A DNA stretch of 64,000 bases from Amoebophrya sp. A120 (lineage: Eukaryota; Protista; Dinoflagellata): NCBI GenBank assembly GCA_905178155.1, contig CAJINV010000003.1:11697105-11761104 (forward strand). The letters run 5' to 3'. Made by a program: the position numbers and the translations under genes. The first letter of the stretch is position 1; each line of letters opens with the position of its first letter. The notes under the pieces were generated by a model. That model was not told the DNA's origin. It saw only the letters and a program-made list of their open reading frames with translations, and did no database searches. This document shows positions 20,599 through 60,900 of the stretch, piece by piece.

Positions 20599-21014
20599 AC
20601 TCCTTCACCATGATGACATGCGGCGAAGTTTTGTGCCATCTAAGGAGAAAACACAACATATGAAGCGCCTTTTATTTCTTCCGTGCTGTCGAGCATGCCA
20701 AAAGACTGCTTCATCGACGAAGTTGAGACTGAGACAGTAGCTTTTTCTCGCGATACACGGCACTTTCGTTGCACTGGTTCACGCGGAGCAGGCTGGAATA
20801 TGACAATGCATAACTTCTCCGTTCCTCATTTATTTCATGCAAAATACAAAGCCGACCCTTTTCCCTCTGGCACTGCTTGCATGACAGGTTTCGGAAGGAG
20901 CCGAAACGCCACTAGACTGTTGATCGGTCGCGAATTTTTCATGCAAAAGCTGCACTCACTTGTGTAGTTGCTGCTTATGCAATTTAAATGACAGCGAGGA
21001 GGAATTCTGCACTC

Positions 21015-24000: not shown

Positions 24001-24269
24001 TCCAGTTCTTGGCACGCGGAGATGCCATTTATCATGCGTAATTAGCATCAAGAAGCTCTCAAAAAATCTGTGATGCTAACACCAGCATCACGGACCTCAT
24101 GGGTCATGCAAAATGTGCATGACGAGCCCCGACTCTTCGTCCAGAGCCAGAACCAGACATAACATATTTGCAATGCATAAGAAATCACCGTATGCAACTC
24201 CGTGCACAGCTGCGCGGTGGAACCCGCTACCTCCAAAATCTTTTCCGCGAAGTGGAGCGATTCTTGGTG
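21015..24269 (-). CDS. Hypothetical multi-exon protein, possibly the C-terminal continuation of the helicase gene
   Basis: Continuous frame after removing four elements: HTVIS-EAMFK, NYSN-CNEQFF, AIAK-TYERE, RVRE-ADGLKR. Stop at 21015. Linkage to ORF 24620-25105 and to the helicase was not resolved. Confidence 0.75.
21897..22136. mobile_element. Family A introner (DR gcttc)
   Basis: tatcaaatgcaaaagtgtctgggtctgg ... ccagacccagacatttttacatttgata. Perfect DR. Confidence 0.92.
22254..22532. mobile_element. Family C introner (DR tcttc)
   Basis: tatcctgtgtaaaaacgtctccacacc ... ggggtggagacgtttttactcacgata. Perfect DR. In-frame join. Confidence 0.92.
22657..22908. mobile_element. Family A introner (DR ttgct)
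   Basis: TIR pair with perfect DR. Interior is the reverse complement of 55421-55678. Confidence 0.92.
23903..24179. mobile_element. Family A introner, degenerate TIRs (DR agaaa)
   Basis: tatcaactgcaaatatcc ... ccagacataacatatttgcaatgcata. Perfect DR. In-frame join. Confidence 0.82.
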
Positions 24270-24274
24270 CTTAT

Positions 24275-24445
24275 TATCCCAGAGAAAAAAGCTGGCAGGG
24301 CATATTTGTAATGCAAAAATACATACACACTAAAATTTGTCATGGGTGGCCCCATAGCGTGCTGTTTCGCATATGCAATACAGATTTTTTTGTGTGCTTA
24401 TTTTTGCATTGCAAATATGCCCTGCCGGCTTTTTTCTGTGTGATA
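24275..24445. mobile_element. Family D introner (TIR about 46 bp, DR cttat)
   Basis: tatcccagagaaaaaagctggcagggcatatttgtaatgc ... gcattgcaaatatgccctgccggcttttttctgtgtgata. Perfect DR. Frame restoration could not be shown here. Confidence 0.82.
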
Positions 24446-24779
24446 CTTATGGAACCATGATCAGGCTCGAAATCGATAAAGTTGAACAAATCATTTGTCA
24501 CGTCGCACAAAACCGATACAACGACTGGCAGCGCAAGAATTACTAAGCGGCGCATCAGACACCTAGGTCCAGTTTGTCGTGCTAGTATTTGGGGAAAGAA
24601 GACATCCCTTGTTGCCATGCTAACTTCTTTGGCAGGGTTGCTCTATCTCTATCCACAAACAGCCACAGAATCGAACGCCCTTGCCCTTTTCCCCAATACA
24701 GGTTTTATTTTGCGCAAGAACAACATTGCGCAATTTCATTGTGCATGGCTGAAGTATTTCACTTTTGTCGATTTCGATT

Positions 24780-25050
24780 CTGAGACTCTCATACTGCTCC
24801 TTGCTGACTTTGTCCTTCGCGATTGGGAAGCCGGACTCCTCCGCCGCTTGGATGTTTTGCTTCTGGTTCTCCTCCAAAATCTCCTGCTTGAACTTCTTTC
24901 CCGAACTCTGCAGCTGCTCCGCCGTGTCGGCTAACTCCGACAAAACCGCGGACAAATCCAGTCCGTTCCACTTCGACAACCTTTTCCCCAGCGCGATCAC
25001 GGACTTGGTCAAGCAGGCCAGTATGAGAGTGCACAACTCCCCCTCCCCCT
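24780..25050 (-). CDS. Probable internal exon (helical), gene assignment uncertain
   Basis: Coding-like core of ORF 24620-25105 (LACLTKSVIALGK...EQYESLRIE). Confidence 0.5.
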
Positions 25051-39067: not shown

Positions 39068-39925
39068 TTTGATTTCTGAGAACGTGCCACTCGCAATCTA
39101 GATCTTTTTACAACTTCCAGCTCTCACACAAACAGTAGGACACACGTTTCACTTTTTTGCGTTCCTTTTATCAAAGCAAGAGGTGGATCGCTTTTTCCTG
39201 AACATAATGTTTTTGCAGCGGCAGCCTTACTCTGTCACAAGTGTTGATCGAGCGATGTGTACTTGGAGGAACGCGTAAAATGTCATCGCAGCGAAGATCT
39301 TCTTGCATCTTCCTGCTGGTGTGAAGATCAAGAGACGTGATCCCAGGCAGAGGAAAGACAGACGCGAACGCGAAACAACTTCGCACAGATGAAGCAGGCA
39401 AGCAACGCTACTTGGAGCAGGTTTGTCCTCGTACTTGTCACATTCCTTGTTCGCAAAGAATTAACATTTTTTGAAATAATTATTATCTGCCATCGGCCCA
39501 GTGCCTCCAACTCAATCTTATCAACAAAACAGCCTACCCAACAGCACCAGCATCATCGAGTAAACATTGAGCAAGAGCAAATCGTATAAAGTAAATGCCA
39601 ACTTCGTCTGTGGAGACGAATCCAACCGTGGCAGTCTTGTCGATTTATCGATCATACAAAGTAAAGTTCTGAAACGTTGAGTTCTGCAGTAAAAACGTCG
39701 AAACCGACTCCTGTAGGCGTAGAAGATCTCTGTGCAACCAAAGCAAACAGTTTTCATTCATTACAAGTTGTTGTTCTTCAAACCAAAATTGTAGATTAAA
39801 GTAGTACGACTACGAGAAGAAACAAACACAAAACGAAAACAGATCAGAAACAGAAAAAACGCTACCCTTCAAGATGTTTTACTTCTGTGCCAAAAAGTTT
39901 CCGTGTTCATCAACCCCTCCTCCTT

Positions 39926-42900
39926 CTACAGGCAGCCCAAGGCCACCCCCAAGAGCACGACGGACAGTAGACCGAACAACACCGTGGCGGCCACGTCGAA
40001 ACAGAAACTCTTCTGCGAAACGAAGTGTCCAATCTCGTTCCTCACCGCAAGCTTCCACTGCTCGTCGACCATAAGCGCCGCCTTCTCAATATCCTGAGTA
40101 GAAACGTCCCCACCCAATATTTTTGCTGTTTCAATCATTTTTTTTCTAATACATAGTCTCAGTCTCAAATTCATGCCAATCTGCATGCCTTGTATCTCTC
40201 TCGTATCGCTCCGCCTGGGTGGCATTTTGTTTTTATCCGATTGAAAAGTCCACCACGCGCTACTCAGCTTGAGAAAGTGGATTTATGATGTTGGGGCGTT
40301 TTTACTCAGGATATTCAATCGGCAAATCCGCCCGTTTTTTCTCTTTCCGGATCTGCAGCAATTGCTTCCACACGGTGAAGCCGGCGGTGACGAGAAAATT
40401 CTCCGAATCCAGCACCAGCCCGTTGATGACATTCGTTCTGGCAACAGCAAAAGTTTCGCAGTGCAAAACTCGCTTTCGGAGATACTGCGAGTGCTGTGAA
40501 GGCCCTAAAATATCCACCTTTTCGCCCATCTTTTCAAATCTTGGCCAGTTGATTGCGCGGCGCCCTCGCCGATTATCGCGTAGCGCCTCTTCGATGGCGG
40601 CTGCGCGTCCGCCTTTGCAAACGCGCCACGCCGGGCTGTTCTATTTCTGCCCCGAGGCCCGGGGCAGAAACGCAAGCCAAAGACCCCAGAGAGAAAAGCC
40701 ACCCAAACGAGCCTCCCAATCATATGAGGCCATGGACCCTGAGCGCGCCTCTGCTTGCGCAGGTAAGGCAAGGCGCCCGGCAATAGCGACAAACGCGGAA
40801 AATGCCCCCGGCGAATTTACCCTCCACAAGGCGCAGCCAAGCGAAAGGCTGCGCCCCCCCTCTTATCAGCCCCGGCCTGGCTTGGGCCTGATTCGGAAAC
40901 AGCGCCCACCGCATCTGATCCGGGAGACCTGAAGAGCGAGCAACCCCTGACGAGGTGGCCCGTGCTTCATGGCGCAACATTTTCAGATGTGGACACGGCT
41001 GAAACGGGGAAATATACCTCGGGGCGCATCTTTTCAAATCTGAAAACCAACAGGCGAAAAAGCTGCTGTGCTCTCCTGTGGTTCTTGAGATTTGAAAAGA
41101 TGCCCTCTCAGCATCTTTTCAAATCTGAAGCGCATGGCCTTTGGCCTGCAAAATTTGAAAAGATGCTGAAGGAGCATCTTTTCCATAACGAAGCCACAAG
41201 AGACCCGAGCAATTTACTCTTCTGTGGTTTCCAGGATTTGAAAAGATGCTGAAGGAACATCTTTTCGAATTTCAAAAGGCGCAAAAGAGGAGGGTCGCCT
41301 GCTCCGTTTTCTGTCCGCAGAAGAGCCGCAGAAGAGCCGATCCGTTTTCTGTCCTGAGGTTGCCAAGATTCGAAAAGATGCTGAAGGAGCATCTTTTCAA
41401 ATTTTACATGCCGCAGACGAGGAGGGCAGCTGGCTGTTCTGTGGTTTTCAGGATTTGAAAAGATGCCGAAGGAGCATCTTTTCAAATTTGAGAAACCACG
41501 CAAACGGAGGCCAGCTCAATCTTCTGTGGCTTCCAAAATTTGAAAGGATGCTACCAGCGCATCTTTTCAAATTTCGACAGCCGCGGAAAGGGTGATCAAC
41601 CTACTCTTCTGCGTGGCTTTCAAAATTCGCAAACTTGCTGAGGGGGCATCTTCGCAATCTTCGGAGCCACAAAAGAGGCAAGCAAACAGGTGTCGCCAGA
41701 GGCACGGCTTTGCTTACCATCTGGCGGCCCGCCAACTGGAGCGCAAGTCAAAGCCTTCGACTTTCGTCCGCAATTCTCTGTCTGGGCGCACCAAAGAGGT
41801 TCCCAAATAGGTTCATCAAAATCCACCATACCATGCGGAGTAGCTTAAGTTAATAGCCTCTTGGGAGACCTCACCAAAGAGGTTGCCAAAAAGGTTGTCA
41901 AATTTTGAAAAGATGCTGAAGGAGACATCTTTTCAAAATTTGACAACATCAACAAAGCAAGTGCTTGCGTTGTTGAGGTTGTCAAATTTTGAAAAGATGT
42001 TTCCTTCAGCATCTTTTCAAAATTTAGAGACTGAGCAGCCACTTATCAAAATTTGAAAAGATGCAGAAAGAGCATCTTTTCAAAATTTGATACTTGCGCT
42101 GTTCGGGTTGTCAAATTTTGAAAAGATGTTTCCTTCAGCATCTTTTCAAAATTTGGAGAGTGAGCAGCCACCTATCAAAATTTGAAAACTCGTTTCCGGA
42201 GATACTGCGAGTGCTGGGCTGCAGAAGTGGTCTCGTCGCTGGAAGCGTCGTGCGTGGCAGGAGCTGGTCCCATCTGTTGATGAATAACGCGTTTGCAGAA
42301 AATTCTTGTGGCGAATACGAATTTGTGTATTTCTATTGATGTATCTACTTCTCATGCAGGTGATCGTCACACGACCTCGTGGTCCTCAGAGAAGCTGAAG
42401 CATTGCGTCTTTGCATAACGAGAACGAAAATCCGCTTTCCATTTTATAGAAGAAAAAACGCAAATAAAACTCAAAAATACGTTTCCGCCGTCCGTGAGCA
42501 AGAACTGCAGTTGCGCCTTTTCTTCCCGCCACTTTTGCTCGTTCTTTTGCAGTTGCAGCCGCATCTTCTTCAGTTCCGCTTCCGCACTGGCCTTCGCGTT
42601 GGTTTCCGCGAAAGCGACTTCTCTTTCCAGCTGCTTTTTCCCTTTCACCCTTTCCTTCTCCAATTCTCTGACCCGCACCTCCGCTTGCTCGAGCTTCGTC
42701 GCAAGCTCCTCAATCCGGACCGACTGCCGCGACGCCTTCTCCTTCTCAAACTCGGATTGGTAATTCTTTGATCCGTGACTCGTTTTAATATTCCGGAACG
42801 TCGCCGCACTGTTCGCCATTCTGTGCGAGGAGGGCGATGCGGTTCTCGGTGTGAAAGAAAAAGCTCCGCCCGCCACCGGGGAAGAGGACGAGGACCCATG

Positions 42901-43188
42901 CCCTCCTGCGTCGGAAGCGTTGTCTTTGAGATTATTTTCATGCAATTTCTCCAGAATGTTTTGCAGAATCTGCAACACAATCTTCGTCCCGATGTTGCGG
43001 ACCTCTTCGGAAACTGTGGCTAGGTCCGCTAAGACTTTGTCCAAATTCGCCTGAAGCTCCGCAAGGGACAAAGTCTCGTTCTCCAAAAGACAGACGGCCG
43101 GGTGGCCGACCAGGAGAGCCACGTCCGGATCGCGGGTCGACATCTTTATTCTTTCCTTGCGACGTTCTTCGCTCGTTCGCAGACGCAA
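39926..43188 (-). CDS. Coiled-coil protein with a C-terminal hydrophobic helix (tail-anchored-like)
   Basis: ORF 42367-43188 is coiled-coil. An exon at about 42300-42185 joins 40496-40314 through a 32-bp duplication, then LPIE-KAAL across 40090-40313. Ends ATVLFGLLSVVLLGVALGCL*. Confidence 0.65.
40090..40313. mobile_element. Family C introner (DR ctcaa/ttcaa)
   Basis: tatcctgagtagaaacgtccccacc ... ggggcgtttttactcaggata. In-frame join. Confidence 0.85.
40497..42184. mobile_element. 1.7-kb insertion with a palindrome array, flanked by a 32-bp direct repeat
   Basis: DR aaaactcg(c/t)tt(t/c)cggagatactgcgagtgctg at 40465-40496 and 42185-42216. Confidence 0.7.
41091..42150. repeat. Array of about 11 palindromes TTTGAAAAGATGC-N7-GCATCTTTTCAAA
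   Basis: Copies near 41091, 41154, 41237, 41369, 41454, 41539, 41624 (decayed), 41903, 41988, 42052 and 42117. Spacing mostly about 64 or 85 bp. Confidence 0.9.
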
Positions 43189-43768
43189 AGACTTCTCGAA
43201 GACACAAAGGACTTTCTCAAAAGAAAAACAGCTGCAAAGGCTGAAGTGCTTTGTTGTGACGCTTTTTTTTACGAGTGTTTCATCTCAAAATGCCCGTCGA
43301 CACAGCAAATTTGGACGAAGACTCGCGCACTCTTGAACTGGTCGCTCACGAAATCTGAATCAATAGATTTAGATTTTGAATTTTCAAACCTCTCGTCTCA
43401 ATCGCGACGCTCGTCAGAGCCGGCGTTTGCATTTTAAAGCGACATCCCTCGCACAGCAGCTCGAGCCGCTTTGCATTCCAAAACGATCAACGTACGTTTG
43501 CAGCACTGAGTCCCTCTACTGCTTTTGCGAACATCCAAAGCACTCAATAGACATAGGCTGCAGAAACTAACATATCGAGTTGTGGCTTTCTTCGGATCGA
43601 TTCATCAATGCCACGAGAAATCATAGAACTCAAACATCTTCCAATCTCGTTTATTTATAATCCCATTCAAACTTTTATATCTAAAGAGGAACAGGATCAA
43701 CAGCCGACATCTTCAAGGAGGTCAGAAGCAACGGTCTACAACTTTTCATGTTGATAAAAGTTTATCTA

Positions 43769-46700
43769 TCATGCCGCCGGGTCAAACACCACCCGCGACC
43801 CTCTGACCGTGTCCCGCTCCGACGCGTTGTTCTGTCTAGCCACACGCTCCATTCTCGCTCGCAACATTGCTTCCCGCGGACCGATCGAGTTTCTGCCACT
43901 AGTAGCACTACTACTTCCACCCCCGCTGCCTGGAAATGAAGGCCGCGACGACTGCATCGCGGCGCCGGACGTCGGGTCGGCCCCGCCTAGGTTGATCCCG
44001 CCACCGGCCATATTTCCCGTGCGTCTCCTCTCCAGCGCATTCAGGCTCGCCCGCGCGACGTCGCGGTTCCGGTAGTTCAATGTCTGCCGAGCCAACGCCC
44101 CATGCAGCGCGTCGATAGTACTACTACTCTGGCTCTGTTGCGCGCGGACAGACACAGAAGGCGTGCCTGTCCTAGAAGACCTTAGCCCAACAACTCCGGT
44201 AGTTGTAGAGCGGAAGCTGCTCGTACTTCCGCTTAGTGGGACGGCAGCGCTGAAGGATGCGTTCCCGGACGTCGTGCGGTTCAAGAGGAGTTGTGCTTCC
44301 TCCTGCTCCTCGCCCTCAAAACTCGGCGACTCATGATCCATCATCGGCCGCACCCGATACCCGGAGGAGTACGGCGAGGCTTGTGGGCTGCCGCTGCCCC
44401 GGTGAGGGAAATTGCTGCGCGTCCCGCTGGGTCGCCTGGCCGGGTTGTAAGGAATAGATGAAGTAGTAGGGTTCATCGACGTGAAAGAACCTGTATTATT
44501 TATGCCCGCCCTGCTACCGGACTCGTTCCCAGGTCTACTGCCATTGAGCCCGAGGCCTAAACCAAACAGAATGTTTTCTTCCAGACTGGTCGGATGCCCA
44601 GGAACAGCACTACTGCTCAAAGCACCGTCCAAACCAACCTCCAAGGTTCTCGGACTGTTCATCCGTTCCACAACCCGGTCCACCAGTTGTTGTCGTTCCC
44701 GTTCCCTTTCCAGCGCGAAGATCCGGGTTTCAATCTGTCTAATGTCGTACCCCGCCTCCGCAGCGACAAACTCCGGGCTGGATACCAGCCTACTCGTTCG
44801 CGCCCTGGAAAAACCACGCGCGGGCGAGAGAGCCGCCCCCGGTGAGCTGGGCGCGCTCGGAACTAGCCGGCTTGAGGTTCTCCCCGCGGAAGAGCGCCGC
44901 GGACTGTGCTGCCCACCAGGCGGCCGAGAGTGATGTGTGGACGAGGACCGCATGTTGTCCACAGGATCATCCGGGCCGTCAGCACGCTCCTGGCTCAAAA
45001 ATCCTATCTGTTCATGATCCTCTATTTCGCCTATCAGGGAAGCAGACGACGAGCCTGTCATCGCGTCGAAATAGGCAGTTGCACCGCCGGGTTGATGGCC
45101 GTATTGTTGTCCACCTCCTGCTGTTGTTCCCAGTGAGCGAAAGGACGCGTTGGAAGTAGATGACAGGGTGGTTGTTCCAGCACCGTGTTGTACTGGCGCT
45201 CCACCACCACCTCCGGAAGACGACCCTGTTGGTCCGATCCCACTGTAGTTCGAAAACCCGCCCGAGCTCCGCCTGGCGGTCGCCCTCGCAATGCGGTCGG
45301 CGGCAACGCTGTTCGGCGGGATGGTCGGATCCCCGGGAAAATGGTCCCGCATCGAGCGAAACAGCGGATCCGTGAAAAAGTTTTCACTCCCGCGGATGCT
45401 ACGCGGCAACGCGCGGCGCGGCTGCGGCGACCCCGGTTCGTTCATGGTGGACATCGGGCTTAAAGCGGTCGTCCCTCGATTCATGGGCGTCGCAGTCGGC
45501 ATAAAGTTCTGCTCCGCCGGAAACAACTGCCTCGACGTCGGTGCTGGTGGTGGACCAGCATTATTCAGTGCTGCGGCCAAGTCCCCCGTCGGCGGCAGCT
45601 GGGGCACCGCACCCTGCATCAACAGCCCCAGTGTCTCGTCGTTCGGCTGGCTCGCGCGCCGGTTGAAACGCACGCTCCGCGGCCGTATGGGAGGAGCTGC
45701 AGCAGGGTGATTAGCTGCTCCAGTCGTTGTCCTGGTCTGTCTCGTGCTAGTTGTGTTTGTTCCGCTACCCGAATCCCGACTGCGGACGGTCGTGAACATG
45801 GCATGATCATTGCCTGCTGCACCTCCGGTCTGCGTCCGCGAGAGCAGTGGTGAGGAGAAGACCTGTTGCGACGTGGAGGACTGTAGCTCGTGGTCGAATT
45901 CGTGGTCCGAGAGAAAATCTCCCAGGTGCATCGTCGGATGGTCACGCGTGGTCTGAAACAACGCGTCATCGCGGAGGATGCTGGAATGCTGACCCCGAGG
46001 AGCAACACCAACAGTAGTGCTTCTGTGATCTCCAGCAAGCAAACCACTACTCGTCGCCGACGCGCCTCGTTGCAGCTGCTGTTGCAGATGGGACTCCACT
46101 CGTTCCAGAACGGACAACGCACTGCCCCCGTTCAACAGCCCCGCTTGCTGGTGTTCTATCGGACTGGTGAGCGCGCCGACCGGGTCGTTGCTCATCTGTA
46201 GTTGTTCCTGTTGGTTCGCAAACGCCTGCTGGTCGAAATTCGAAAACGCCTCTAACACCTCCGGATTCCGCTGCTCAATCTGCTCCGCTAACAGATTCAC
46301 GGTCCGCAGCGCCCCGGGCCCGCCCGACGCGATCTCCGAGGGGTCTATGTTGATGAACTCGCACGCTTTCAACAACGCGTTGCTGAAGAAGTGGTCCCGG
46401 ACGCCTTTGAAGGGGCGCGTCTTCGGGTTCATGTTCTGCCGTTCTAGTCTGTTCAATTGGTCTTCGTTTGGGTCTTGCTCAAGAAACCCGTTGTCATTCA
46501 CCGCACCTAAGTTGTTCAATCTGTCCAAATCCGTGTTCAAAACCCCGTCACCCAACACCATCCGGTCCGACTCCGGGAGTTCCTTCACGAGGATCTTTGG
46601 GTACGCGTTGATGTTGTTTTGGATCAGGCACTCCCGAAAACAGTTCGAAACCGCGAGCAGCAAGGACACGTCCACCGCGCCAGGCGGCACTTTGATCTCC

Positions 46701-47110
46701 CAGACCTGCAAGAATTCCAACTGCGTCGGAATTGCCGGCGGGATCATCTGCTCCACGCCGTCGCCCAGCTCCCCGAGGATCTCCCCGGAGGAGGCCTTCC
46801 GGATCGCCCAGCGCTGCGACCCGAGGTGCTGCGTCCAGGGGTCGAAGGTGAGCATGACCGAGTCGGATTTGGTATCAATCACCTCGTACACGTAGGGGTG
46901 TCGCGCGATCATGTCGGGGATAAAACGAGGCTTCACCTCCAGCATCGGCGTCTTCGCGAAACTCTTCGCGTTGTACACGAAACCTTTAGCGAGCTCGAGG
47001 CGACCCTGTTTTTGTTTTTGTGGTTGGGTATTTTTGCAACTTGCAGTTCTTATGAATTTCCGATGTTGCGACAACCGCATCCATTCTGGACACGTCGACC
47101 AATCTGTCAT
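43769..47110 (-). CDS. Large hypothetical protein, possible N-terminal LURP-one/scramblase-like domain, long Ser/Gly/Arg-rich disordered tail
   Basis: 1113-aa ORF. The segment WAIRKASSGEILGEL...WEIKVPPGAVDVSLLLAV resembles the C-terminus of the Tub_2/LOR fold (domain call tentative). Confidence 0.75.
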   Translation of the reverse strand: MTDWSTCPEWMRLSQHRKFIRTASCKNTQPQKQKQGRLELAKGFVYNAKSFAKTPMLEVKPRFIPDMIARHPYVYEVIDTKSDSVMLTFDPWTQHLGSQRWAIRKASSGEILGELGDGVEQMIPPAIPTQLEFLQVWEIKVPPGAVDVSLLLAVSNCFRECLIQNNINAYPKILVKELPESDRMVLGDGVLNTDLDRLNNLGAVNDNGFLEQDPNEDQLNRLERQNMNPKTRPFKGVRDHFFSNALLKACEFINIDPSEIASGGPGALRTVNLLAEQIEQRNPEVLEAFSNFDQQAFANQQEQLQMSNDPVGALTSPIEHQQAGLLNGGSALSVLERVESHLQQQLQRGASATSSGLLAGDHRSTTVGVAPRGQHSSILRDDALFQTTRDHPTMHLGDFLSDHEFDHELQSSTSQQVFSSPLLSRTQTGGAAGNDHAMFTTVRSRDSGSGTNTTSTRQTRTTTGAANHPAAAPPIRPRSVRFNRRASQPNDETLGLLMQGAVPQLPPTGDLAAALNNAGPPPAPTSRQLFPAEQNFMPTATPMNRGTTALSPMSTMNEPGSPQPRRALPRSIRGSENFFTDPLFRSMRDHFPGDPTIPPNSVAADRIARATARRSSGGFSNYSGIGPTGSSSGGGGGAPVQHGAGTTTLSSTSNASFRSLGTTAGGGQQYGHQPGGATAYFDAMTGSSSASLIGEIEDHEQIGFLSQERADGPDDPVDNMRSSSTHHSRPPGGQHSPRRSSAGRTSSRLVPSAPSSPGAALSPARGFSRARTSRLVSSPEFVAAEAGYDIRQIETRIFALERERERQQLVDRVVERMNSPRTLEVGLDGALSSSAVPGHPTSLEENILFGLGLGLNGSRPGNESGSRAGINNTGSFTSMNPTTSSIPYNPARRPSGTRSNFPHRGSGSPQASPYSSGYRVRPMMDHESPSFEGEEQEEAQLLLNRTTSGNASFSAAVPLSGSTSSFRSTTTGVVGLRSSRTGTPSVSVRAQQSQSSSTIDALHGALARQTLNYRNRDVARASLNALERRRTGNMAGGGINLGGADPTSGAAMQSSRPSFPGSGGGSSSATSGRNSIGPREAMLRARMERVARQNNASERDTVRGSRVVFDPAA

Positions 47111-47166
47111 GCATAGGAGAAGACAATTTGAGAAATCAACGGAACCATCCTATCCACTAGTACTCT

Positions 47167-48027
47167 TTATACAAAGACACCATAAAGTACTTTCTGCACG
47201 AATTCCCGCTTCAGCTCCCAACAAAACAGCACCGTATCCGCGACCGAATTTTCCACCGGCGTCCCTGCTTGGTGCGCTAGTAATGCGGAACAGCCGTAGA
47301 ATTTTTCAATCGGAAACTGCTCCAACAGTTTCAACACCGCAGATCCAAAATCCAACTTTGCGGTCACGAAAGGCGTATCCGCCCCCGTCTTTGGCACGGA
47401 GGATAACGCCCAGCGCTTCGCCAAGTGCGTCTTTTGCTGCATCATCGAGGCGGAGTAAAACCCCTCCTCGTAAATCCGGTTGCCCGGCGGCCGGAGCATG
47501 GAATGGTACAACGGCGAAACCTCCGCGGTGACGGGCACCTGTAGCAGGCTAGACACATGGTCCACGGTGCGGAACACGTAGTGCGAGTCGGTGTTCGAAA
47601 AATTCAAGAACCGCCGGTAGACTACCGGCACCGGAGCGTGCTGCGGTTCTTCGAGGAGGGAATTGGACTTCATCAAGCTGCCAGAAGTATTTCTGGTGGG
47701 CGAACGGTTGTTGCGGTTGTTCAGATTTGACGAGTTCTGGTCGTTTTCCATATTGTTTTCGCTGAACATGTTTTCTTCCGCCGTTTGCTGCGAGATCGGC
47801 GGGGAACGGGACAGGAGCACCAGGTCGTCGTGGTCCTCGTTTTGGTTCGTCAAATCCGAATTGTAACTCGCGTCCTCCACAATAAACTGCTGACGCGTTT
47901 CCCGCGTCGTGCGGTCAAAGGAATCCCGATCCACCATGGTACAGATACGCGGCGAAGGAAGATGGGAGAGTTGTGCTTGAGACGTGGAAGATTTTTCCCT
48001 GTGCCGATGGATTGTGACTACGCGCAC
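47167..48027 (-). CDS. Hypothetical ORF, probably the first exon of the 43769-47110 gene
   Basis: 286-aa ORF on the same strand, 57 bp upstream, with coding-like composition. Confidence 0.6.
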   Translation of the reverse strand: MRVVTIHRHREKSSTSQAQLSHLPSPRICTMVDRDSFDRTTRETRQQFIVEDASYNSDLTNQNEDHDDLVLLSRSPPISQQTAEENMFSENNMENDQNSSNLNNRNNRSPTRNTSGSLMKSNSLLEEPQHAPVPVVYRRFLNFSNTDSHYVFRTVDHVSSLLQVPVTAEVSPLYHSMLRPPGNRIYEEGFYSASMMQQKTHLAKRWALSSVPKTGADTPFVTAKLDFGSAVLKLLEQFPIEKFYGCSALLAHQAGTPVENSVADTVLFCWELKREFVQKVLYGVFV

Positions 48028-49213
48028 GACATCTTACTTTGCAACGGCTCCGTCTATGGAGATGAACAACCAGTGGTGGTTCGGGAACAACTCGCTCGGG
48101 TGGGCGCGTTGTTCCCTACTATCACTACAGAAACTACGGGGGAACTCAGGCACGGTCTTCCTCATTCGACAACAAGACACTTTCAGATACCACGTAAACC
48201 ACGAATAATGAAAGGGTCTTTCTGAACGATGGTCGGTGACAAGACAAACAGTAATAGCAACATCTTTTCCAAGTGGGGAATCAAGGTCATATCACATGGG
48301 AGTATCGCTGCTCGTGATTCGGAAAAGAAAGGCCTACACGCTATTGGCTACAACGCCAATTCCGATCGAGACGGCGCGCAAGCGCAACACATAAAAATGA
48401 AGCGGTGAAAAACGCACATACCAATAGACCGCCTTCGCACACGTTGAAGCATGACTGGAACGAGAAAGCATCGATGGGCTGCAGAAGATCTTCTTTACAC
48501 AGCACGAACGTAGTTGTCACTGACACTTTGTATGAACGAATTCAGGATCGTTTTCCAATCACAGAGCGCACGCTACGATACCGATCATACTAACTTAGTG
48601 CTCTTCTCTGTCCTTCCGGGACAAGAACTGGGTGCTTGCACACACGTCTGCACGACACGACCGAAAGCTCATATTGAAAATTAAAATCCGAAAGGTTGTA
48701 GGAACGAACCAAAACTCGCTCAACAGATGCATGGGGTCACGCCTCCTTCTAAAAAGGAATTCAAAACGACGAACGTGTATCTCGCTGGACGCCCTGCACG
48801 TGACCGAAGTAGCGACTTGCAACATCTTCCGAACATCATAATTCCCTTAAACACAACTCACAACAGACTGCACACCGCAACTTCCTCATGCGGGAATCGC
48901 GGCCAGAAGCCTGCTTCCTTTTTTAAACCGGGCTACAACAACTTTTTCGGCAGTACTACAGCTTTGACAAAGCAGCAAGACAATCTCTCGAATTTTCACA
49001 GCGTTGTTTCCACTGAAGTTCTCAAAGCAGGCGCAGATTCTCACAGGTGTGTCCAAACATCAGCATATTCTCAGTTCAAGCACAAATCTGCTCCCGCTGA
49101 CTCCACTGCTTTAAAATCTCCAAAAATTGCCCCGCTGAATCATCTCCGCAGTCAGCAAAAGATCCTCCTCCAAGCAAACAATTTCGAAAGCTGGCATTAG
49201 TCCGGCGAAGCAC

Positions 49214-49526
49214 TTAGTGCTTCAGCTTGGTGCGGCGCCAGTGGCGGCGCTTGGCGTTGTACCTGGTAGAGGTTTGGAAATTTAGGATTTGATGTCATCG
49301 GCGGTCTACGGCATAAACTCAGCACACCTCATTGCCAGACACTGCTGTTGTCACACTTCGCATAAAAAACGTCACTTGTGATGCAAAAGGAAAAGATGGG
49401 AAAAAACAAAAGGTTATAGTACTTGATCTTGTCCTGCTTCAGGCGGAACCACTGCGGAAGCGGGCGGTTCTGCTTCATCTTCTTCGCGAGAAGCATCTTC
49501 AGCTTGAAGGTCTTGATGGAGCCCAT
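49214..49526 (-). CDS. RPL39: 60S ribosomal protein L39 (eL39), two exons
   Basis: [35 protein letters not shown] + [19 protein letters not shown] intron at 49263-49422. Confidence 0.96.
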
Positions 49527-50145
49527 TTTGCCGTTTTGGTTTGGACTAACCAAAAGTGCCTAAGTCGTACTAAGCCCTTTACGGTTCCCTGGAAAAAGAG
49601 TTGATGTGGATGAGAAATTTTCATGTTTGCAGTCAGCGGCTCCTTACAGGAAAGGAAGTTCTTCTTAGTCGGAAACAGAACGGATCGCTAGATTTTTCTG
49701 TATTCTTTGATCTCCGGTCACTTATCGGAACCTTGATCGTTTTCGTGACGAGATTTAGATCTGCTTCTTTCACTGTTACTTACATCAGGGCGTGCTCTTT
49801 GTCGTCGCAAACTGGATCTAAATTCTGATCAAGCGGATCCTTTCCCATTGCTTAGCATGATCGAGATCGAGGCGAGCTTTATGTTGGAGACGCTTGTAAT
49901 TGTGTCTGTCTTGGTCTTTAAATTGCTTCGATCTTGTGGAATTCGTCTCAGAGATGAACGTGTGCTCAACCATTTCTCAACAGCAACTCTCGCGGGCCCG
50001 GCAAGAACAAAAATTTCGATGCGCGACGAGGCAACTTTTACCTTCAGATGATTTCAAAGAAATCCGACTTCATGGACCCAAAGTTCACTTTTACTCACTG
50101 AATCCATTTCCACCTCTACTGCAGCAGTGTACGAAACACCGCTAT

Positions 50146-52483
50146 TCATAATTTAGATTTCTGCCTCTTGGTCCCAGTATCATTCACCACTTCGGGCATT
50201 TTCAACACAAGTTTCAAACTCCTCGGCACCGCGTTTTCCTCACCCGCAGGGTCGTCACAATTCTCTCCGAATTCCGTGATTTCGTCCCAATACTGATGGA
50301 TCTCCTTCCAGTCCACGGGCTTCTGCCGCACCTGCTCCGTCCCCAATTCCGGAAAGTACACCCCTCCACTTCTTTGAAATTTGATCTCCGCGTAGAACCC
50401 CGGCCCCGCTTCAAAAATGCGACCGGTGATTCCGTCGGAGGCGGAGCAGAGGAGGTAGGTCACGAGGGGTGCGATGTGCCCCGGGTCCGCGCCGGACGTG
50501 TAGTGCTGCAGCCCGACCGTTTTGGTCATCGCGGTGAGGGCGGTGGGAATGATCACATTAACGTGGATATTTTGCTTCTTGCCCTCCTTCGCGAGTGATT
50601 TGGAGAAGCCCAGGATCGCCGTTTTCATACCTAGAAGAAAGCAATCTTTTTCGATCCTTCGCAGAGCATGAACTCATCTTGCGCAGTTCGGGCTGCGCCT
50701 TCTGACACACGGAACTAATACTTGCAGCATTGTTATTCATCAGACAGGGATAACTTGATTTAAATTCGCATCGAGATCTGTTGACCCCTCCGAATAGAGG
50801 TGTCAGAACTCAAGGTTGGTCATCACGCTTGATAGTTTTCCGGGCTCCTGCTACCCATGAATAGACGAAAGGGACTAAAACTCAGACAGGGATAACTTGA
50901 TTTAGATTCACATCGAAGTTTGCTCGTGACAAACCTCTTTGAATAGAGGTGTCAGAACTCAAGGTTGGTCATCACGCTTGCGAGCAGCTGCTAAAGACTC
51001 TACGCCTACTGTAAAACTAAAACTCAGACAGGGATAACTTGATTTAGATTCACATCGAAGTTTGTGCTCTTGACAAACCTCTTTGAATAGAGGTGTCAGA
51101 ACTCAAGGTTGGTCATCACGCTTGCGCGAGCTGCTAAAGACTCTACGCCTACTGTAAAACTAAAACTCAGACAGGGATAACTTGATTTAGATTCACATCG
51201 AAGTTTGCTCTTGACAAACTTCTTTGAATAGAGGTGTCAGAACTCAAGATTGGTCATCATAGCGGGTGTCCCGGATCTTCTACTGTAGCATTTGGATCCT
51301 AATGCGTCACGCGCGTTTTGCATGTAGTCAGACCGTCGTAGTCTTTAGCTTTTCTGTTTTCACTCACGGTTTCCGAGAGGAAATCAGAGGATTGACAGAT
51401 TTTAGAAAAAGTTGTGTCATCATGGCAAAGGAGTCGTGCGTTCTTCATTTCGATCTTTAGAACTGGTTGGCCGAGTACACCTGTACTCGCGAACGAGCAG
51501 CATTCTTTCGCAAAATCATACGTATGTCTCAGTTTTTAGGTCTCCAACGCCTCCTTTTGGAAAGAGTCTCGGAAAAGATTAAGCCTTAGAAGGTTGTAAT
51601 CATGTTGGACTAAAGATCTCTGCAGGACTCAATTTTTTTCAATTTACCGGATCAGAAGGTACTTACCGCCGATCAGATCCGAAAGGCCGTTTGCTTCAGT
51701 GAATTTCAGGCGGCATGAGCAGTGCTTTATGATCGTTATGTTCGCCCTTCACAAGTGCAGTTAATGAAAGTGAAACAAAATAATCGAAATCGATATACTG
51801 GCATAATTCGTCTGGCCGTAGGCTCCACAGATCCCGTTCATGGAGCTGACGTTCACGATCTTGCCTCGCTTTTGCTCGAGAAACAGCGGCCAGCACTTCT
51901 TGCACAAATTTCGCACGCCGAGCAGGTGTAAATCGTAGATCTGCCTCCACTGCTCGTCGCTCTGGTTTTTGAACGCTACGTCCCGAAGGATGCGGTTTGA
52001 AGAGAAAAAAGCCGGAGTTTCTCTTGCGGAGAGTTGCCGTTTTGTTGGAAAAGTCGCGCTTCGCGCAACTTGTTGTGTTCGAGTAATCACAGTGATGTCA
52101 TGCAAAACGATTTGAATCTAAAGGCGGCAACTCCACCGCCTTTCGTCTCCACTACGTCTTTGTTCTGATACCCCAGCATTGTTCACCAATCCGGTCGGCG
52201 GCCCTCCCAGATATCGCATACAGTCTTCCACTATCTTCGCTGCGCCATCTGGTGCACCACCGCTTTCCGGTGCGATGCTGCTGGTGTTCACGCCAACTTT
52301 CGTTTTCGGACTGAGAATCCTGATCTCCGACGCCACTGCCTCGGCATTCTTCCCATTGATGTCATTTACCAGAAGTCCACCCACGCCGGCATTGGCGAGG
52401 TCCAGGCAATAGGCGCGGCCAAGACCGGCGCCCGCCCCGGTCACGATAACCCGGGCGGTGGACAGGTCGGAGGGAGGATGCAT
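50146..52483 (-). CDS. Short-chain dehydrogenase, peroxisomal MFE-2/HSD17B4 dehydrogenase-like, three exons
   Basis: VIVTGAGAGLGRAY, LVNNAG + ILRD...KIVNVSS..GICGAYGQTNYAS + MKTAILGFSKSLAKEG (YxxxK is split across intron 2). The C-terminus is SKL, a PTS1 signal. Confidence 0.92.
50740..50826 (-). ncRNA. Box C/D snoRNA copy 1 (snR38/SNORD1-like guide)
   Basis: GTGATGA (box C) ... TTCTGACACCTCTA ... AGTTATCCCTGT-CTGA (box D). Both guides are antisense to conserved LSU rRNA. Confidence 0.85.
50882..50975 (-). ncRNA. Box C/D snoRNA copy 2
   Basis: Same C box, guides and D box, with an internal stem between the putative D' and C'. Confidence 0.85.
51024..51119 (-). ncRNA. Box C/D snoRNA copy 3
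   Basis: Same boxes and guides. Tandem period 142-143 bp. Confidence 0.85.
51167..51260 (-). ncRNA. Box C/D snoRNA copy 4
   Basis: ATGATGA ... guides ... CTGA. Confidence 0.85.
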
Positions 52484-54917: not shown

Positions 54918-57900
54918 TCAGAAGTGTTTCTTTTTGTTCGTGCTCTTCTCGTAGCCTTTACTCTCCCGCGACCTCCGTCTCTTCCCACCGCCCTCCCCGC
55001 GCGACTCGGGTCTTAGTCGTGCCTGCAAAATCTCGAATTCCTCTCGCCGGTTCGCCTCGAAGGACTCGATGTAGGGTGTGTTCCCCGTTCCCATCAGCGA
55101 TCCGGACGTTTTCTGCGACAGCAACGCGGACTGCGATCCATCTTCCTTCTTTTTCTTCTTCTGCGCGCTTTGCTCCTGCTCACCCGGAGTAGTCCCGGCG
55201 AGCGCTCCTTCCAGCTGTTGTCCCTGGTTTACTTCCCGGTTTTGTTGGCTCTTTGAACTCGGGGGACGGAGTTTTTCTAGTTCTTCCTCTCTCTTCCGCT
55301 TTATCTCCTCCTGCTCTTCGTAGTAAACTCCGTGGTCGATGTCGAGTAAGTCCATGACGTCGCAGCCGAAGCAGTTTGCCAACGTCACGAACGTGTCCAG
55401 AATCCCGATCGGGGACAGCGTATGCACTACAAAAATGTTTGGGTCTGGAAGTCTACAAGTTTGTCTTGCTTGGCTAGCATGACTCTTAAGTCTGTCATGC
55501 ACGTTACCCAAAAGCCACAGCTTTCAGACATGCAAAAACGCAGTTTGTCATGCTGGATAGACAACACCTATCAACTCAGTAGAAATTTGTCATGCTCAGC
55601 CGTCATTTGTAGCGTCCTCATGATTCGCCCATCAGCATCACAGGTTTATTCCAGACCCAGACATATTTGCCGTTCATACAGCGTCAACCTTGACAACCCC
55701 CTCACCGGGGTGACGTCGTCCGGCTTCACCCACAGATCCGGAATCCCCGCGGACACGGGGTTCAACCCGATAATCGCCAGCTTCGCAATTTCCGCGATGT
55801 GCTTGCTCCGGCAGAGCAGTTCCACCGGATGCGCACTCGGGTCGTAGATCTGCGCGAATTTCTTCTTGTCAATCAGCAGGCTCCGCAACCGGTCGGTCAG
55901 ATACAGAATGTAAATGTACAACTCCTCCACACCCAGTCTCCCCGCCCCCAACGCGAAGATGTAGCGCGCGGTGTACTGGAAACACCGGTACAGAAACGTT
56001 CTTCTCCGCTTCAGCCGCACGACGTGCAGATAGCCCCGGTTGAACACGTGGCGGGACTTGTGGCACTTGAACACCTCCCTGGCGGATTCGGAGTAGCAGA
56101 AGGAAAGCAAGTTCGATTCCTCGTGGGTGTCGAGGGTGAGTTCGTCCTCTTCCAGCTCCTCCTCCTCGGTTGTACTAGAGGAATGCGTCGCAGTCTGTTG
56201 CTCCTCGCCGCTCGTGGCATTCAGGTTGTCGTCTCCCGAGTTGCTGTTTTGCGCCACCGCGATCGCGACCACAGCGGCGGGAAGCTCAGGCCCATCTTCT
56301 ACCTGGCCGCCTTGCTGTTTCCTGCCTGCTTCTTTTGTTGCGCCGCTTTGGGGGCGACTTGACGTTTTCTTGCCTGCTTGTTCATCTGCTTGTTCTCCCG
56401 CATTTTCTCTCTCCGCCGTGCCCGGTTTCGAATTCTCATTCAGTTGCTCCAAGCCAAAATTGTCCGGAATGTCTTCCCCATCTACCGCCTCCTTGGCCGG
56501 AAATTGACTATTGTCCTGCGCCACCACCGCGACCGTCGCGGCGTTTGGAAACAAACCTCCATTATTACCATTTCGCTCTCTTCTCATTTGCCTTTTCCGG
56601 TCCCGCATGAACCACGGCCCCTCGTCCTCCGATTCGAAAATCCGACTTCTCGCCGGGGCAGCCAACCGGTCCTGTATCCCGAGTAAAAACGTACCCACGC
56701 CAGGGTTGTAATGCAGATTTGCAAAGACAGGAAGACTTGTAATGCGGTCCCCATGAGAGCTATTTCCAATCGTGTTTTGGAATTTGTGATGCTGTGAACA
56801 GGATGAGCAGATGAATCTGTGATGCCGCTGCACTTGCTGACCTGCACTACACTGCGTAGTGCAACTTGTCATGCGTGACTCACAAAACTCCTAGGTTTGT
56901 GTTGCAAAATCACCATCCTAAGTCTGGTGTGGGTACGTTTTTACTCAGGATACCCTGGTACTCGAACTCATCCTCGCTGTCGTCGTCGGGCGGTAGACTG
57001 AACCGCACCCGGTCGACCGGATTTTCCCACCCGTCCGCCGTGTCGACGGAACTGTCGCTGTAGCAACTGCTGTCGTCCTGTAAGATCCTCCTCCTCCGGG
57101 TTTTGCTGGTGACTTGGAACAAGTTCGACTCGTCCGTCTTGTACGCGCGCTGGCACTGCGCGGCGTAAATGTCGGAGATTTCGAATTTCAGCTTCTCCAG
57201 CCGGTTATGCTCCGCCTCCATGCGCTTCGACCCCTGCAGCCGAACCTTGTCGAACCACAGGTCCTTGCCCCGTTTCTCCTCCAATTTTCGCAACGACAGG
57301 CCTCGCAAGTCTCCCTGTCGGTTCTGGTTCTCCTTCAGCTGCTTTTTCCGTTGCAGCGCCGCGGCCGACGACCCCCCGTCCCCTGGACTGTTGCCCGCGT
57401 ACCGCGCGGCTGTCTTCTGCGCGTACTCCCGCCGGTAGTCCAGGCAGTCCTGCAATTCCATTCTTAAATTCACCCGGGAGAAAAGCGGGGCAATGTCTTT
57501 CATCGCGAGAATTGGCTCGGCGGGCAGCTCGGCGGGCGTCAACCTGTACATGTACCGCTTCACGCGGAGCTGCTCGTCGGTGATGGCATCCAGGTCGTCC
57601 TCGTCCCCTCCGTTCCCACCACCGCCGAACGCCACCAGCGCGCCCTCCGCGCCGCTCGCATTGCGGCTCGCGTTGGCGGAGGAAGAGCTCGTGTGGCCGC
57701 GGGGTTTCGGGAAGACGGGGTCGATGAAGTTCCCCTGGCTAGTTACTTCGTAGAAATTCTGTTTGTCGAACCGAAACCGGCCGACCAGGCCGCACACCCC
57801 GTTCCAGTTTGTGTCGGGAACCACCAGGGAGCCCGGAGCGTTGTCGTTCTTTGGCTTATTATTCGCTGACGCGGAAGATGTACCACCACCTCCTGCAGCA

Positions 57901-60900
57901 TTTCCGCCAGGAGCAGGTGAGGACCCACTAGTTGTACCGGCGACGACAGACACGGTTTTCTTTTCCCGCTCCGGGGAGTTCGGTGGTGGCTCGTCCCCCT
58001 GTGTCAAAAACGTTTTGTTCGGCGAGTTCTTGTTCGGAGATGTTGGTGGTGGTCTATTCATCTGGGAGCTGTCCTGGATCGCAGCCGAAGCAGCGCCCGC
58101 CGCGAAACCGCTGTTGTTCCCCAACATCTTCATAGCCCCCACTCTTGGCACTGGCAGCGGCGCGGAGCCGAAGAACGCTAACGCAGCTTCCTCTCCCTTC
58201 TCGTGGACCCACCAATCGAGGAATTCCTTGCCGTACCGGCCGGCTAAAAAAGGTAAGAGCGAAATTCCGTTGTGGACCCAAAACACGTCCGGCGCGCCGA
58301 TGGTCTTCATCATGTGCTCGTGGGTGCTGGAGGCCCACACCTGCAACTCGTGCTCGCCCTTCAATTTCTCCTGCTTCGAGCCCCCACCGCCCTGTTGCTC
58401 GTTGTTGCCGTCGTCGTCGTCATCCATGACCGCCATGCCCGCGGGACGTAAGGGTGCGCCCTTTACCGTCACCGTCATGAAGAGCAGGTTCGAGTACGAG
58501 TCGTGCACCTCATCCGAGCTGTTCCTCGTGTGCAACCCCCGCGGCGTCCACTGCTCGTCTTCGCGCTTCACCTTCTCCCTCACTAATCCGGCGACCTTCT
58601 CCGTGTTGGACAAAAATTTCTTCCGGTTTTGCTTCACCCGCGCCTGCTGCATCTTCGCGTTCTCCAGGCCGGACTGCTCGGAAAAGCTGCTCGACTGCAA
58701 GTCCCCGAACCGGTTCGGCTTCTTCGCCTCCGCGGCGACCTGTCCCAGTTGCGCCGCCTGCGCTTGGACCATCGCGCGGTAGCGCCCAAAAACCTCCGCC
58801 TGCCGCAGCATCCAGGTTTTTTCCAACGGTTTCTTCCACTTGCACGGCCCGTTGCTCACAAACGTGTAGTCGTACCGTTCCGGTCTCGCGGGCCGCCGGT
58901 GCAACCGGTTCCAGATCACCGTGATTCGCGGGGCGAGCAGGAGTTGTTCCTCCTCCTCTTCCGCAGAGGAAACTCCCCCACTCATCTGCGCAGCCCGTTG
59001 ACCACCCGCTGTGTTGACCGCAACGATCGCGCTCTTCTCCGTCCCCGTTTGCTCCCCGCTGCTCTCGTTCGCGGAGAAGTATCGCACAGAAAAAAGGTGA
59101 CTATACAGGACACATCTGTTGTATATGCAAACGCAAACACACAGAAAACTGTCATGCACGTGCCCATAGCTTGCTATTTGCAATGGGGTATGTAGTTGTT
59201 TTCATCTTGATTTTGCAGTACAAACACTAGTATGGTGCTATGCTACCTCTATTCTGCGAGATATGGAGCTACTGCTGCTGCTCTCTTCCGGCTCGGGCTC
59301 GACGTAGCGGTAATCATCGCCGAAAAGCAATAACTTCCGCTCGTTTCCCCAAGCCGGTTTTTGCGTCCAAGCGAAGTCCCGGCCCCCTCCGAACACCGGT
59401 TCTTTGGGGGGTTTTTTACTCCTCCGTTTCGCCGCTTTGCTGTCGTCCTGCTCGTAAAACTTCAACTCCCGTTGCCGCCTCTTCTGACTCTGCCGGGTCT
59501 GCAGCACCAGCCCGGTGTCTGCGCGCGGCCACCGCAGATCGGGAACTTCTTCCGGGAGGACCAACGCTTCCGTCACGTCGTCCTCGTCGGACAAGTCCCG
59601 GTGGTCCGTGGGGAGCAGGTGCAACAAAAAGTTTTTCCCCTTGCCCTCTAAAGGCATGTCCCGGCGGAACTTCACACCTTCGAGGTTCTCTCTTCCGAGC
59701 TTCTTTTCCGACCGGGAGTAGGTTTTTACCCTCTTCGCCGGGTTGAAAGCGACGACGTTCTGCGCCTGCATTTTCCGCAAGGTCGCCGCGTCCTCCTGCA
59801 TAAGAATGGACTCCACGGTGGAGAGTTCGGGGACCGCGTTGGCGTGCATGAGGAAATCACTCCTGTTCGACTTGCTGCTCTGTTTCGTGTCCGGCCGGTC
59901 GGTCTTTTGTGATTCCGGTCGGCTGGACTGGGAGGTTTTCAGCTCTTTGTCTTTCTTCTTCTTGTTAACATCCTTGTCCTTCGCGGGGGAGGGAGACTGA
60001 GACTGCTGTCCCAGCGCGAGGCGCGCGGTCGTGCCCGGGGAGGTCTGCCTTGCTGCGGGGAGCAGGTCCTCAATCTGGATGGAAACGAGGCCCTGGAGGG
60101 AGAGGAGATTTTCATTTTTTGGAAAAATATATATAAAGCAGGGGTTTGGTGGGGTCGCAGGGGTTATTTTTGTCTAGCGCCGGAAGAGCAGAACCGCGGG
60201 AGCCAAAGCCCTCATGTCGAAGGCTGCGCGGTTTGGCCAATTTGGTATCCTACCCCGATTCCCCTAATTTCATACCCTCACCCGATTCGCCTTCTTTTGT
60301 ACCCTACCCCGATTTGGCTAATTTTGTACCCTCCCCGAATTTTGTACCCTATCCCGATCTCCCTAATTTTGTGCCCTAGCCCGATTTGGCAAATTCAGTA
60401 CCCTCGCCGAATTGTGTACCCCATCCCGATTTGCCTAATTTTGTACCCTAGCCCGATTTGGCAAATTCTGCACCCTCCTCGAGTTTTATACCCTACCCCG
60501 GGCAATTTTGTAAGTGTGTGCCCTGCCCCGAAAGGCCTCCGCTTGCGCCCCCGGGAAACACGGAAACCGGGAAACGCGGAAACCGGGAAACGCGGAAACC
60601 GGGAAACACGGAAACCGGGAAACACGGAAACCGGGAAACACGGAAACCGGGAAACACGGAACCCGGGAAACACGGAACCCGGGAAACACGGAACCCGGGA
60701 AACACGGAACCCGGNNNNNNNNNNNNNNNNNNNNNNNNNNNNNNNNNNNNNNNNNNNNNNNNNNNNNNNNNNNNNNNNNNNNNNNNNNNNNNNNNNNNNN
60801 NNNNNNNNNNNNNNNNNNNNNNNNNNNNNNNNNNNNNNNNNNNNNNNNNNNNNNNNNNNNNNNNNNNNNNNNNNNNNNNNNNNNNNNNNNNNNNNNNNNN

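Follow-up and report, generated by a model that had tools for sequence, protein, structure and literature searches.

The window, by which we mean the whole 64,000-nt stretch of Amoebophrya sp. A120 DNA that was analyzed, carries its genes chiefly on the minus strand, along with numerous short TAT..ATA elements. It also holds a tandem repeat of about 143 bp (50740-51265) within a canonical 1,168-nt intron (50631-51798), and a tandem-repeat block of 27-, 16- and 30/34-bp units around a run of N (60232-62140; 993 N in the window). One minus-strand gene encodes a 360-aa protein and is organized as follows in the order of transcription, with "copy" referring to either unit of a 32-bp duplication that flanks an inserted repeat.

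42481..43143, minus strand: exon 1 of the 360-aa protein (RNA contig pieces; model identical to P0001)
42274..42480, minus strand: canonical GT-AG intron of 207 nt (joint 42273/42481 in X3, X4 and X6)
42206..42273, minus strand: exon 2 (68 nt), whose last 11 nt are the first 11 of the upstream copy (RNA contigs)
40507..42205, minus strand: spliced intron of 1,699 nt, GTATC...GATATTTT (joint 40506/42206 in X3, X4 and X6)
42201..42205, minus strand: 5' splice motif G-TATC, in duplicated host coding sequence that stays coding where it recurs in the downstream copy
40507..40514, minus strand: 3' splice motif GATA-TTTT, contributed by the inserted repeat, with an AG that lies 2 nt beyond it left unused
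40497..40506, minus strand: retained insert, 10 nt in the mRNA, giving the last base of Q and then G-P-S
40315..40506, minus strand: exon 3, 192 nt (RNA contigs)
40086..40314, minus strand: ordinary TAT..ATA introner, used as a control, with a 4/5 target duplication (joint 40085/40315)
39926..40085, minus strand: exon 4 up to the stop codon (RNA contigs; model identical to P0001)

Eight sequencing runs were compared with the window. The transcript structure is given directly by RNA contigs, a form of evidence that drops rare isoforms. A single 1,019-nt contig of X3 (depth 39.9) consists of 43239-42481, 42273-42206 and 40506-40315, and its joint 40506/42206 skips 1,699 nt with zero letters that would fit either side. 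The same joint recurs in X4 (depth 54.6) and X6 (depth 23.8); the joints covered are all four of X3 and, in a later set that includes X4 and X6, 15 of 28. These three runs come from one sample of one study and may underlie the public annotation. The mRNA retains 11 nt from the upstream copy, then 10 nt from the insert and the downstream copy in full, and the first 11 nt of the 32-bp repeat occur in it twice. The product accordingly reads QHSQ-GPS-QHSQYLRKRV at this point and, at 360 aa, is identical to the public Amoebophrya sp. A120 protein P0001; exon 1 matched one protein at 100% among 625 candidates, namely the 360-aa A120 record. This identity means that the 1,699-nt intron is already part of the public gene model.

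The retained sequence adds seven residues to the protein (QHSQ twice plus GPS). Removal of the intron is needed for the full protein, because the unspliced frame stops three codons into the insert (253 aa), and use of the AG 2 nt past the 3' end would give a frameshifted 306-aa product. By inspection, the 360-aa protein has a coiled-coil-like middle and a hydrophobic C terminus. Pfam searches of exons 1 and 3 returned 0 families, and the ESM Atlas returned no match of at least 0.9 and no TM over 0.4. The only other match was the A25 orthologue P0003 (663 aa, E 6e-13), which shares LRK and later motifs. The seven added residues sit in a Ser-rich linker with poor conservation in P0003, a protein too divergent to tell whether QHSQ was ancestrally single. 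In X9, a marine metatranscriptome, one contig agrees with exon 1 over 42864-43138 except for one difference; the coverage of the window by X9 consists of that stretch and 49005-49186, with the junction outside its reach.

A first-pass annotation of this DNA had described the locus as an insert flanked by a 32-bp duplicated coding segment, and the duplication is real. Its parts, and those of the insert, are as follows.

42185..42216, minus strand: upstream unit of the 32-bp duplication, with 11 nt in exon 2 and 21 nt in the intron
40465..40496, minus strand: downstream copy, fully coding (RNA contig piece 40315-40506, 0 other letters)
40497..42184, no strand assigned: inserted repeat of 1,688 nt, multi-copy by X1 contig depth, with no long ORF and no inverted repeats at its ends
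41021..41670, no strand assigned: hairpin array whose units measure about 85 bp and all contain a palindromic TTTGAAAAGATGC..GCATCTTTTCAAA hairpin
41891..42188, no strand assigned: second hairpin array, about 64-bp units, stopping mid-unit at the upstream copy

The two copies (40465-40496 and 42185-42216) are 30/32 identical and lie 1720 apart. As had been claimed, both translate on the minus strand as QHSQYLRKRV, the mismatches at 40473/42193 and 40476/42196 being aag/aaa and cga/cgg, and collapse of the insert plus one copy leaves an open frame, of 353 aa. The 20-nt exact core of the duplication is the longest of five exact two-copy repeats found in a window scan (at least 16 nt, 100-6000 nt apart, three repeat arrays left out). 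The insert comprises a GC-rich part (40497-41020, 60% GC) and the two palindromic hairpin arrays, the hairpin pattern matching 10 times within it; the second array breaks at 42188 with a 4-nt overlap. Its ends show no terminal inverted repeat (3-7 matches out of 25), its longest ORF from ATG is 112 aa, and neither an A-rich or simple-repeat tail in its sequence nor a second copy in the 64-kb window was found. Three insert frames gave 0 Pfam families, and all 66 Rfam matches fell under the gathering score and were mostly generic miRNA-like hairpins. Scans of viral and metagenome contigs with the hairpin motif pattern gave 0 loci and no viral source, and a scan of metagenome contigs with the repeat-core pattern gave 0 loci and no empty allele. 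A single TTTAGGG unit (minus strand), one of three in the window, lies at the insert's end (40503-40509), and the 3' cut falls inside it. TTTAGGG has been reported as the telomere motif of A120 (PMC7789003, accessible text), and the insert could, on this post hoc observation, be subtelomeric DNA. RNA-like contigs join pieces of the insert to foreign sequence, leaving loose ends at 40644, 40701, 40917 and 41413; other loci may transcribe incomplete copies of the repeat.

The genomic arrangement was examined with X1, which behaves as DNA, giving long unspliced contigs at a depth of 22-30. The X1 unique contigs span 39900-40524 and 42159-50821, extents that place both 32-bp copies next to insert sequence. 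Over 40522-41304 the X1 insert contigs reach depths of about 150-450, compared with 22-30 for unique DNA; further right they have depths of 35-67 at three places and several differences from the window. Summed contig depth does not equal copy number, and by this depth the insert is a dispersed multi-copy repeat. The ends of the unique contigs fit 30-mers from 40495 and up to 42188 (each single-copy in the window) being shared with other copies. Thus, the insert edges may reach 40495 and 42188 through 2-nt and 4-nt microhomology, and we infer a target duplication of 26-32 bp. None of the joints listed for X1 is 40506/42206. The window itself may derive from X1, and the interior length of the insert is as assembled, no single contig spanning it.

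That the structure is an assembly artefact, or the joint a reverse-transcriptase jump, is suggested by a repeat unspanned by any short-read contig, into which the X1 contigs reach by only 28 and 26 nt, below the 31-nt bar used. Against this, an X1 contig crosses the 5' splice site and extends 47 nt into the intron, both copies and 10 nt of the insert are present in the mRNA itself, and the junction lacks microhomology, whereas template switching would favor the 32-bp repeat. The exactness of the junction in particular argues against a reverse-transcriptase artefact, and we regard this explanation as very improbable. Likewise, the misassembly of haplotypes that the first-pass annotation had raised as a concern is not what is found, the locus being a non-canonical intron in an expressed gene.

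Even less probable, in our estimation, is a junction that floats within the 32-bp repeat and removes 1720 nt with either copy usable, as the first-pass annotation had proposed from the synonymous-only divergence of the copies. The collapse is indeed in frame and both mismatches are synonymous. However, the joint from 42206 to 40506 is exact and keeps 11 nt twice, and neither a 1720-nt joint nor the 353-aa collapse product is seen among the joints listed in the three RNA-like runs. In the upstream copy both mismatches fall in the intronic part (21 nt), and at these two positions the mRNA has the letters of the downstream copy. Synonymy is in any case expected for changes in a coding copy, and otherwise two synonymous-only changes would arise by chance with a probability of about 0.06, or 0.12 for transitions. 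A floating junction in the 32-bp repeat is thus not supported.

What the RNA does show is an intron removed with ends that are not GT-AG (GT..TT), in which a TAT at the start is matched by an ATA at the other end. The absence of TATC termini reported in the first pass does not hold, the intron starting G-TATC (42205-42201, within the upstream copy) and ending GATA-TTTT (40514-40507). The cuts fall 1 nt ahead of TAT and 4 nt past ATA, and the intron's length is therefore that of TAT..ATA plus 5, as in the neighboring introners. Indeed, this -1/+4 register fits 16/16 ordinary TAT..ATA introners checked. Nine RNA joints were analyzed, representing four TAT..ATA introners, the 1,699-nt intron, three GT-AG introns and one GT..CA intron; all four introner joints permit -1/+4, and jointly they leave only -1/+4 or -2/+3. 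Three introner joints had been predicted beforehand and all were then met in RNA contigs, 56670/56954 and 59075/59265 exactly and 55414/55678 as a slid equivalent. In addition, the annotated protein P0002 (1,583 aa) maps to the window with 16 introns, a set that rests on annotation and not on reads. Twelve are TAT..ATA, all of which permit -1/+4, and one of these, 19455-19717, permits nothing else. The others are two TAT..ATG introns and one TGT..ATA intron with the same -1/+4 spacing, and one GT-AG intron. TAT..ATG or TGT..ATA introns lie at 20528-20756, 19763-19917 and 18648-18815 (minus strand), and single changes in the TAT/ATA triplets seem tolerated.

More broadly, 15 elements in a window scan combine strong inverted ends with a perfect duplication of 5 bp on their flanks, and several others have 3-4 of 5 positions duplicated; a 3-bp target duplication for introners was dropped because these 15 candidates show perfect 5-bp duplications. 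The introner at 24268-24794 (minus strand) bears a second introner, 24275-24445, with a perfect 5-bp duplication inside its terminal ATA, and looks like a nested twintron with the outer register preserved. Another, at 16808-18025 (minus strand, 1,218 nt), encloses an inverted-repeat element (16981-17790). The introners 56671-56953 and 40086-40314 have end sequence in common; the summed X1 contig depth of the former is near 48,000, compared with about 25 for unique DNA, which suggests a very abundant family.

The 1,699-nt intron does not have the ends of such elements. Its end complementarity (4 exact, 8 of 20) is among the weakest of the set, and its end duplex is no better than shuffles (z -0.7 and -1.5). 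A terminal stem is predicted with P of about 0.85 with 6-nt flanks and is lost with 68/100-nt flanks, with a 13-bp inner helix (intron positions 18-30 with -36..-24) staying at about 0.8 with longer flanks. Under the flanked test the stem is also near zero in 3/7 ordinary introners and weak (0.4) in a fourth; the fold thus neither proves nor excludes end pairing, and we rejected folding as proof of a terminal stem, since it is context-dependent. The 5-bp direct duplication of introners is lacking at the intron boundaries (0 of 5, with zero letters at the junction fitting both sides). The intron body is multi-copy by contig depth, and its 5' 21 nt are host-derived. In its RNA the 1,699-nt intron behaves as Amoebophrya introners do, yet it is not a member of that group, lacking both the inverted repeat and the short direct repeat. 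The first-pass proposal of a separate class of non-canonical intron defined by a long direct repeat therefore stands in its first part, the intron being non-canonical and expressed with a GT..TT joint, and falls in its second, the register being that of the TAT..ATA introners.

Since the intron does begin with GT, it might simply be an ordinary spliceosomal one, with a GT donor (CA/GTATCT), a relaxed non-AG acceptor and an ATA at -7..-5 that is coincidental. The canonical introns at 42480 and 51798 likewise begin GTAT, and weak end pairing is in keeping with this reading. A GT donor can also join a non-AG end without the TAT..ATA code, as at 51991-52171 (minus strand), an RNA-supported and unambiguous 181-nt intron (GTATC..CA) with a pyrimidine tract and neither an ATA (-7) nor an inverted repeat, which may represent a third type of splicing or an acceptor in decay. 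The first-pass statement that no GT-AG was evident is likewise not confirmed, given the GT start and 14 frame-preserving GT..AG pairs in the scanned range, none of which is used among the joints listed. However, the 3' end of the 1,699-nt intron is TT and purine-rich, without an AG acceptor or a pyrimidine tract, and the real AG 2 nt later is skipped. ATA occurs at a frequency of 0.005-0.007 per position, making its presence at the exact introner position unlikely by chance (about 0.5-0.7%). Six N-TAT/ATA pairings were open to this donor, two of them in frame, and the one used is nearest to the element's end. Nor is the introner register a GT rule in disguise, because 12/16 introners begin with A, C or T (A 8, G 4, C 2, T 2). 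We therefore consider a relaxed GT intron unlikely.

Somewhat less likely again is a decayed or compound introner, whose relic end would be the ATA, whose 5' end would have been replaced in a later duplication, and in which the long repeat would be secondary. Aged or nested introners with weak ends do occur in the window (24268-24794, 16458-16698 and 18863-19156). However, the unique X1 contigs stop at 40524 and start at 42159, as expected if 30-mers from 40495 and up to 42188 are common to other genomic copies; the ATA would then, judging from these contig breaks, lie 14-16 nt inside the repeat's end and be no terminus. The lack of a terminal inverted repeat also speaks against an introner in decay.

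Among the closest described systems are the introners of the same organism. For Amoebophrya A25 and A120, Farhat et al. (2021, PMC7789003) define these elements by inverted repeats of 8-20 nt together with direct repeats of 3-5 nt. The accessible text of that study reports that no U1 snRNA was found and leaves the cut sites undefined, blurred as they are by the short direct repeats; in the legend of its Fig. 3 the position of the border is given as unknown, and only introns of 40-1000 nt were analyzed. In its Table S4 all nine predominant A120 non-canonical splice pairs begin N-T, and the -1/+4 register may be implicit there or shown in the logos of Fig. 3 or S19-S23. The intron described here shares with these introners the organism, the non-canonical ends, the TAT start and the rule that length is TAT..ATA plus 5. 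It differs in having no 3-5 nt boundary repeat, no 8-20 nt inverted repeat and a 5' end from the host exon, and, relative to the analysis in PMC7789003, in its length of 1,699 nt, above the 40-1000 nt range, and its unambiguous border.

Other likenesses concern how the intron was assembled. In the introner-like elements of Aureococcus and Polarella (bioRxiv 2020.10.14.339549; PMC11282704, as far as their accessible text goes), one splice end comes from the element and the other from the duplicated target, and the exon can retain a small number of bases from the element or the target; these elements have TIRs, 3-8 nt duplications and G(T/C/A)-AG ends. Dinoflagellate IRIB (PMC5032977, accessible text) likewise place repeated sequence at both intron ends, but their repeats are of 2-11 bp, kept once in the mRNA, and their junctions are ambiguous, whereas the present mRNA carries 11 nt in duplicate and has an exact junction. 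In the present intron the target duplication supplies the 5' splice end, located 11 nt inside the upstream copy. Unlike the Aureococcus and Polarella elements, however, this single case combines TT at the 3' end with a duplication of 26-32 bp and lacks a TIR. Introns gained through break repair in Daphnia or through segmental duplication are reportedly spliceosomal GT-AG introns. In the accessible accounts of staggered double-strand-break repair (PMC4202315) and segmental duplication (PMC3265369), an exon repeat flanks the insert and the duplication gives a splice signal, the exon-intron repeats being of 4-12 bp (PMC4202315) as against 26-32 bp here. The long target duplication and the truncated end with microhomology of non-LTR retroelement insertions may have counterparts here in the putative 26-32 bp duplication and in the array break at 42188 with its 4-nt overlap; an RT ORF and a tail were not found. 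In the portion of the open-access literature that we consulted, we found neither the exact A120 register nor a hybrid intron with a long duplication.

The best reading of these data is a chance hybrid intron that was rescued by the introner splicing code: a repeat insertion with a 26-32 bp duplication, spliced at one fixed G-TAT to ATA+4 junction, likely by the introner machinery. We assign this reading as a whole a probability of about 0.68. In such a scenario, a fragment of the dispersed hairpin-rich repeat would have entered the exon with a long duplication, through break repair or a retro-type event. The upstream copy would have happened to hold G-TAT, and the repeat would have carried an ATA 14-16 nt from its end, at a spacing that kept the reading frame (one chance in three). 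The introner pathway may then have recognized N-TAT...ATA-NNNN and removed the stretch, with the 13-bp helix and internal hairpins perhaps helping to draw the intron ends together. The long duplication would have made the insertion survivable, because the 21 coding nt given up to the intron exist again downstream, and the cost would have been seven extra residues in the Ser-rich linker.

The gain is mechanistic and not a new gene, as the intron is already in the public gene model. The lack of a direct-repeat blur at the 1,699-nt intron makes the exact register readable, and the neighboring introners obey it too. The intron further suggests that a target duplication is not needed for splicing, and it illustrates one route by which a repeat that is not an introner becomes an intron, leaving a seven-residue scar. 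Amoebophrya has tens of thousands of non-canonical introns, and an exact register bears on how these are removed. We propose, tentatively and at a little less than even odds, that a second splicing code of A120 reads N-TAT...ATA-NNNN at a fixed register, with no need of a target duplication or a strong terminal hairpin, and that chance motifs turn unrelated insertions or duplications into introns. If true, this would explain many of the unclassified non-canonical introns of A120 and would provide a direct handle on a possibly U1-independent splicing machinery.
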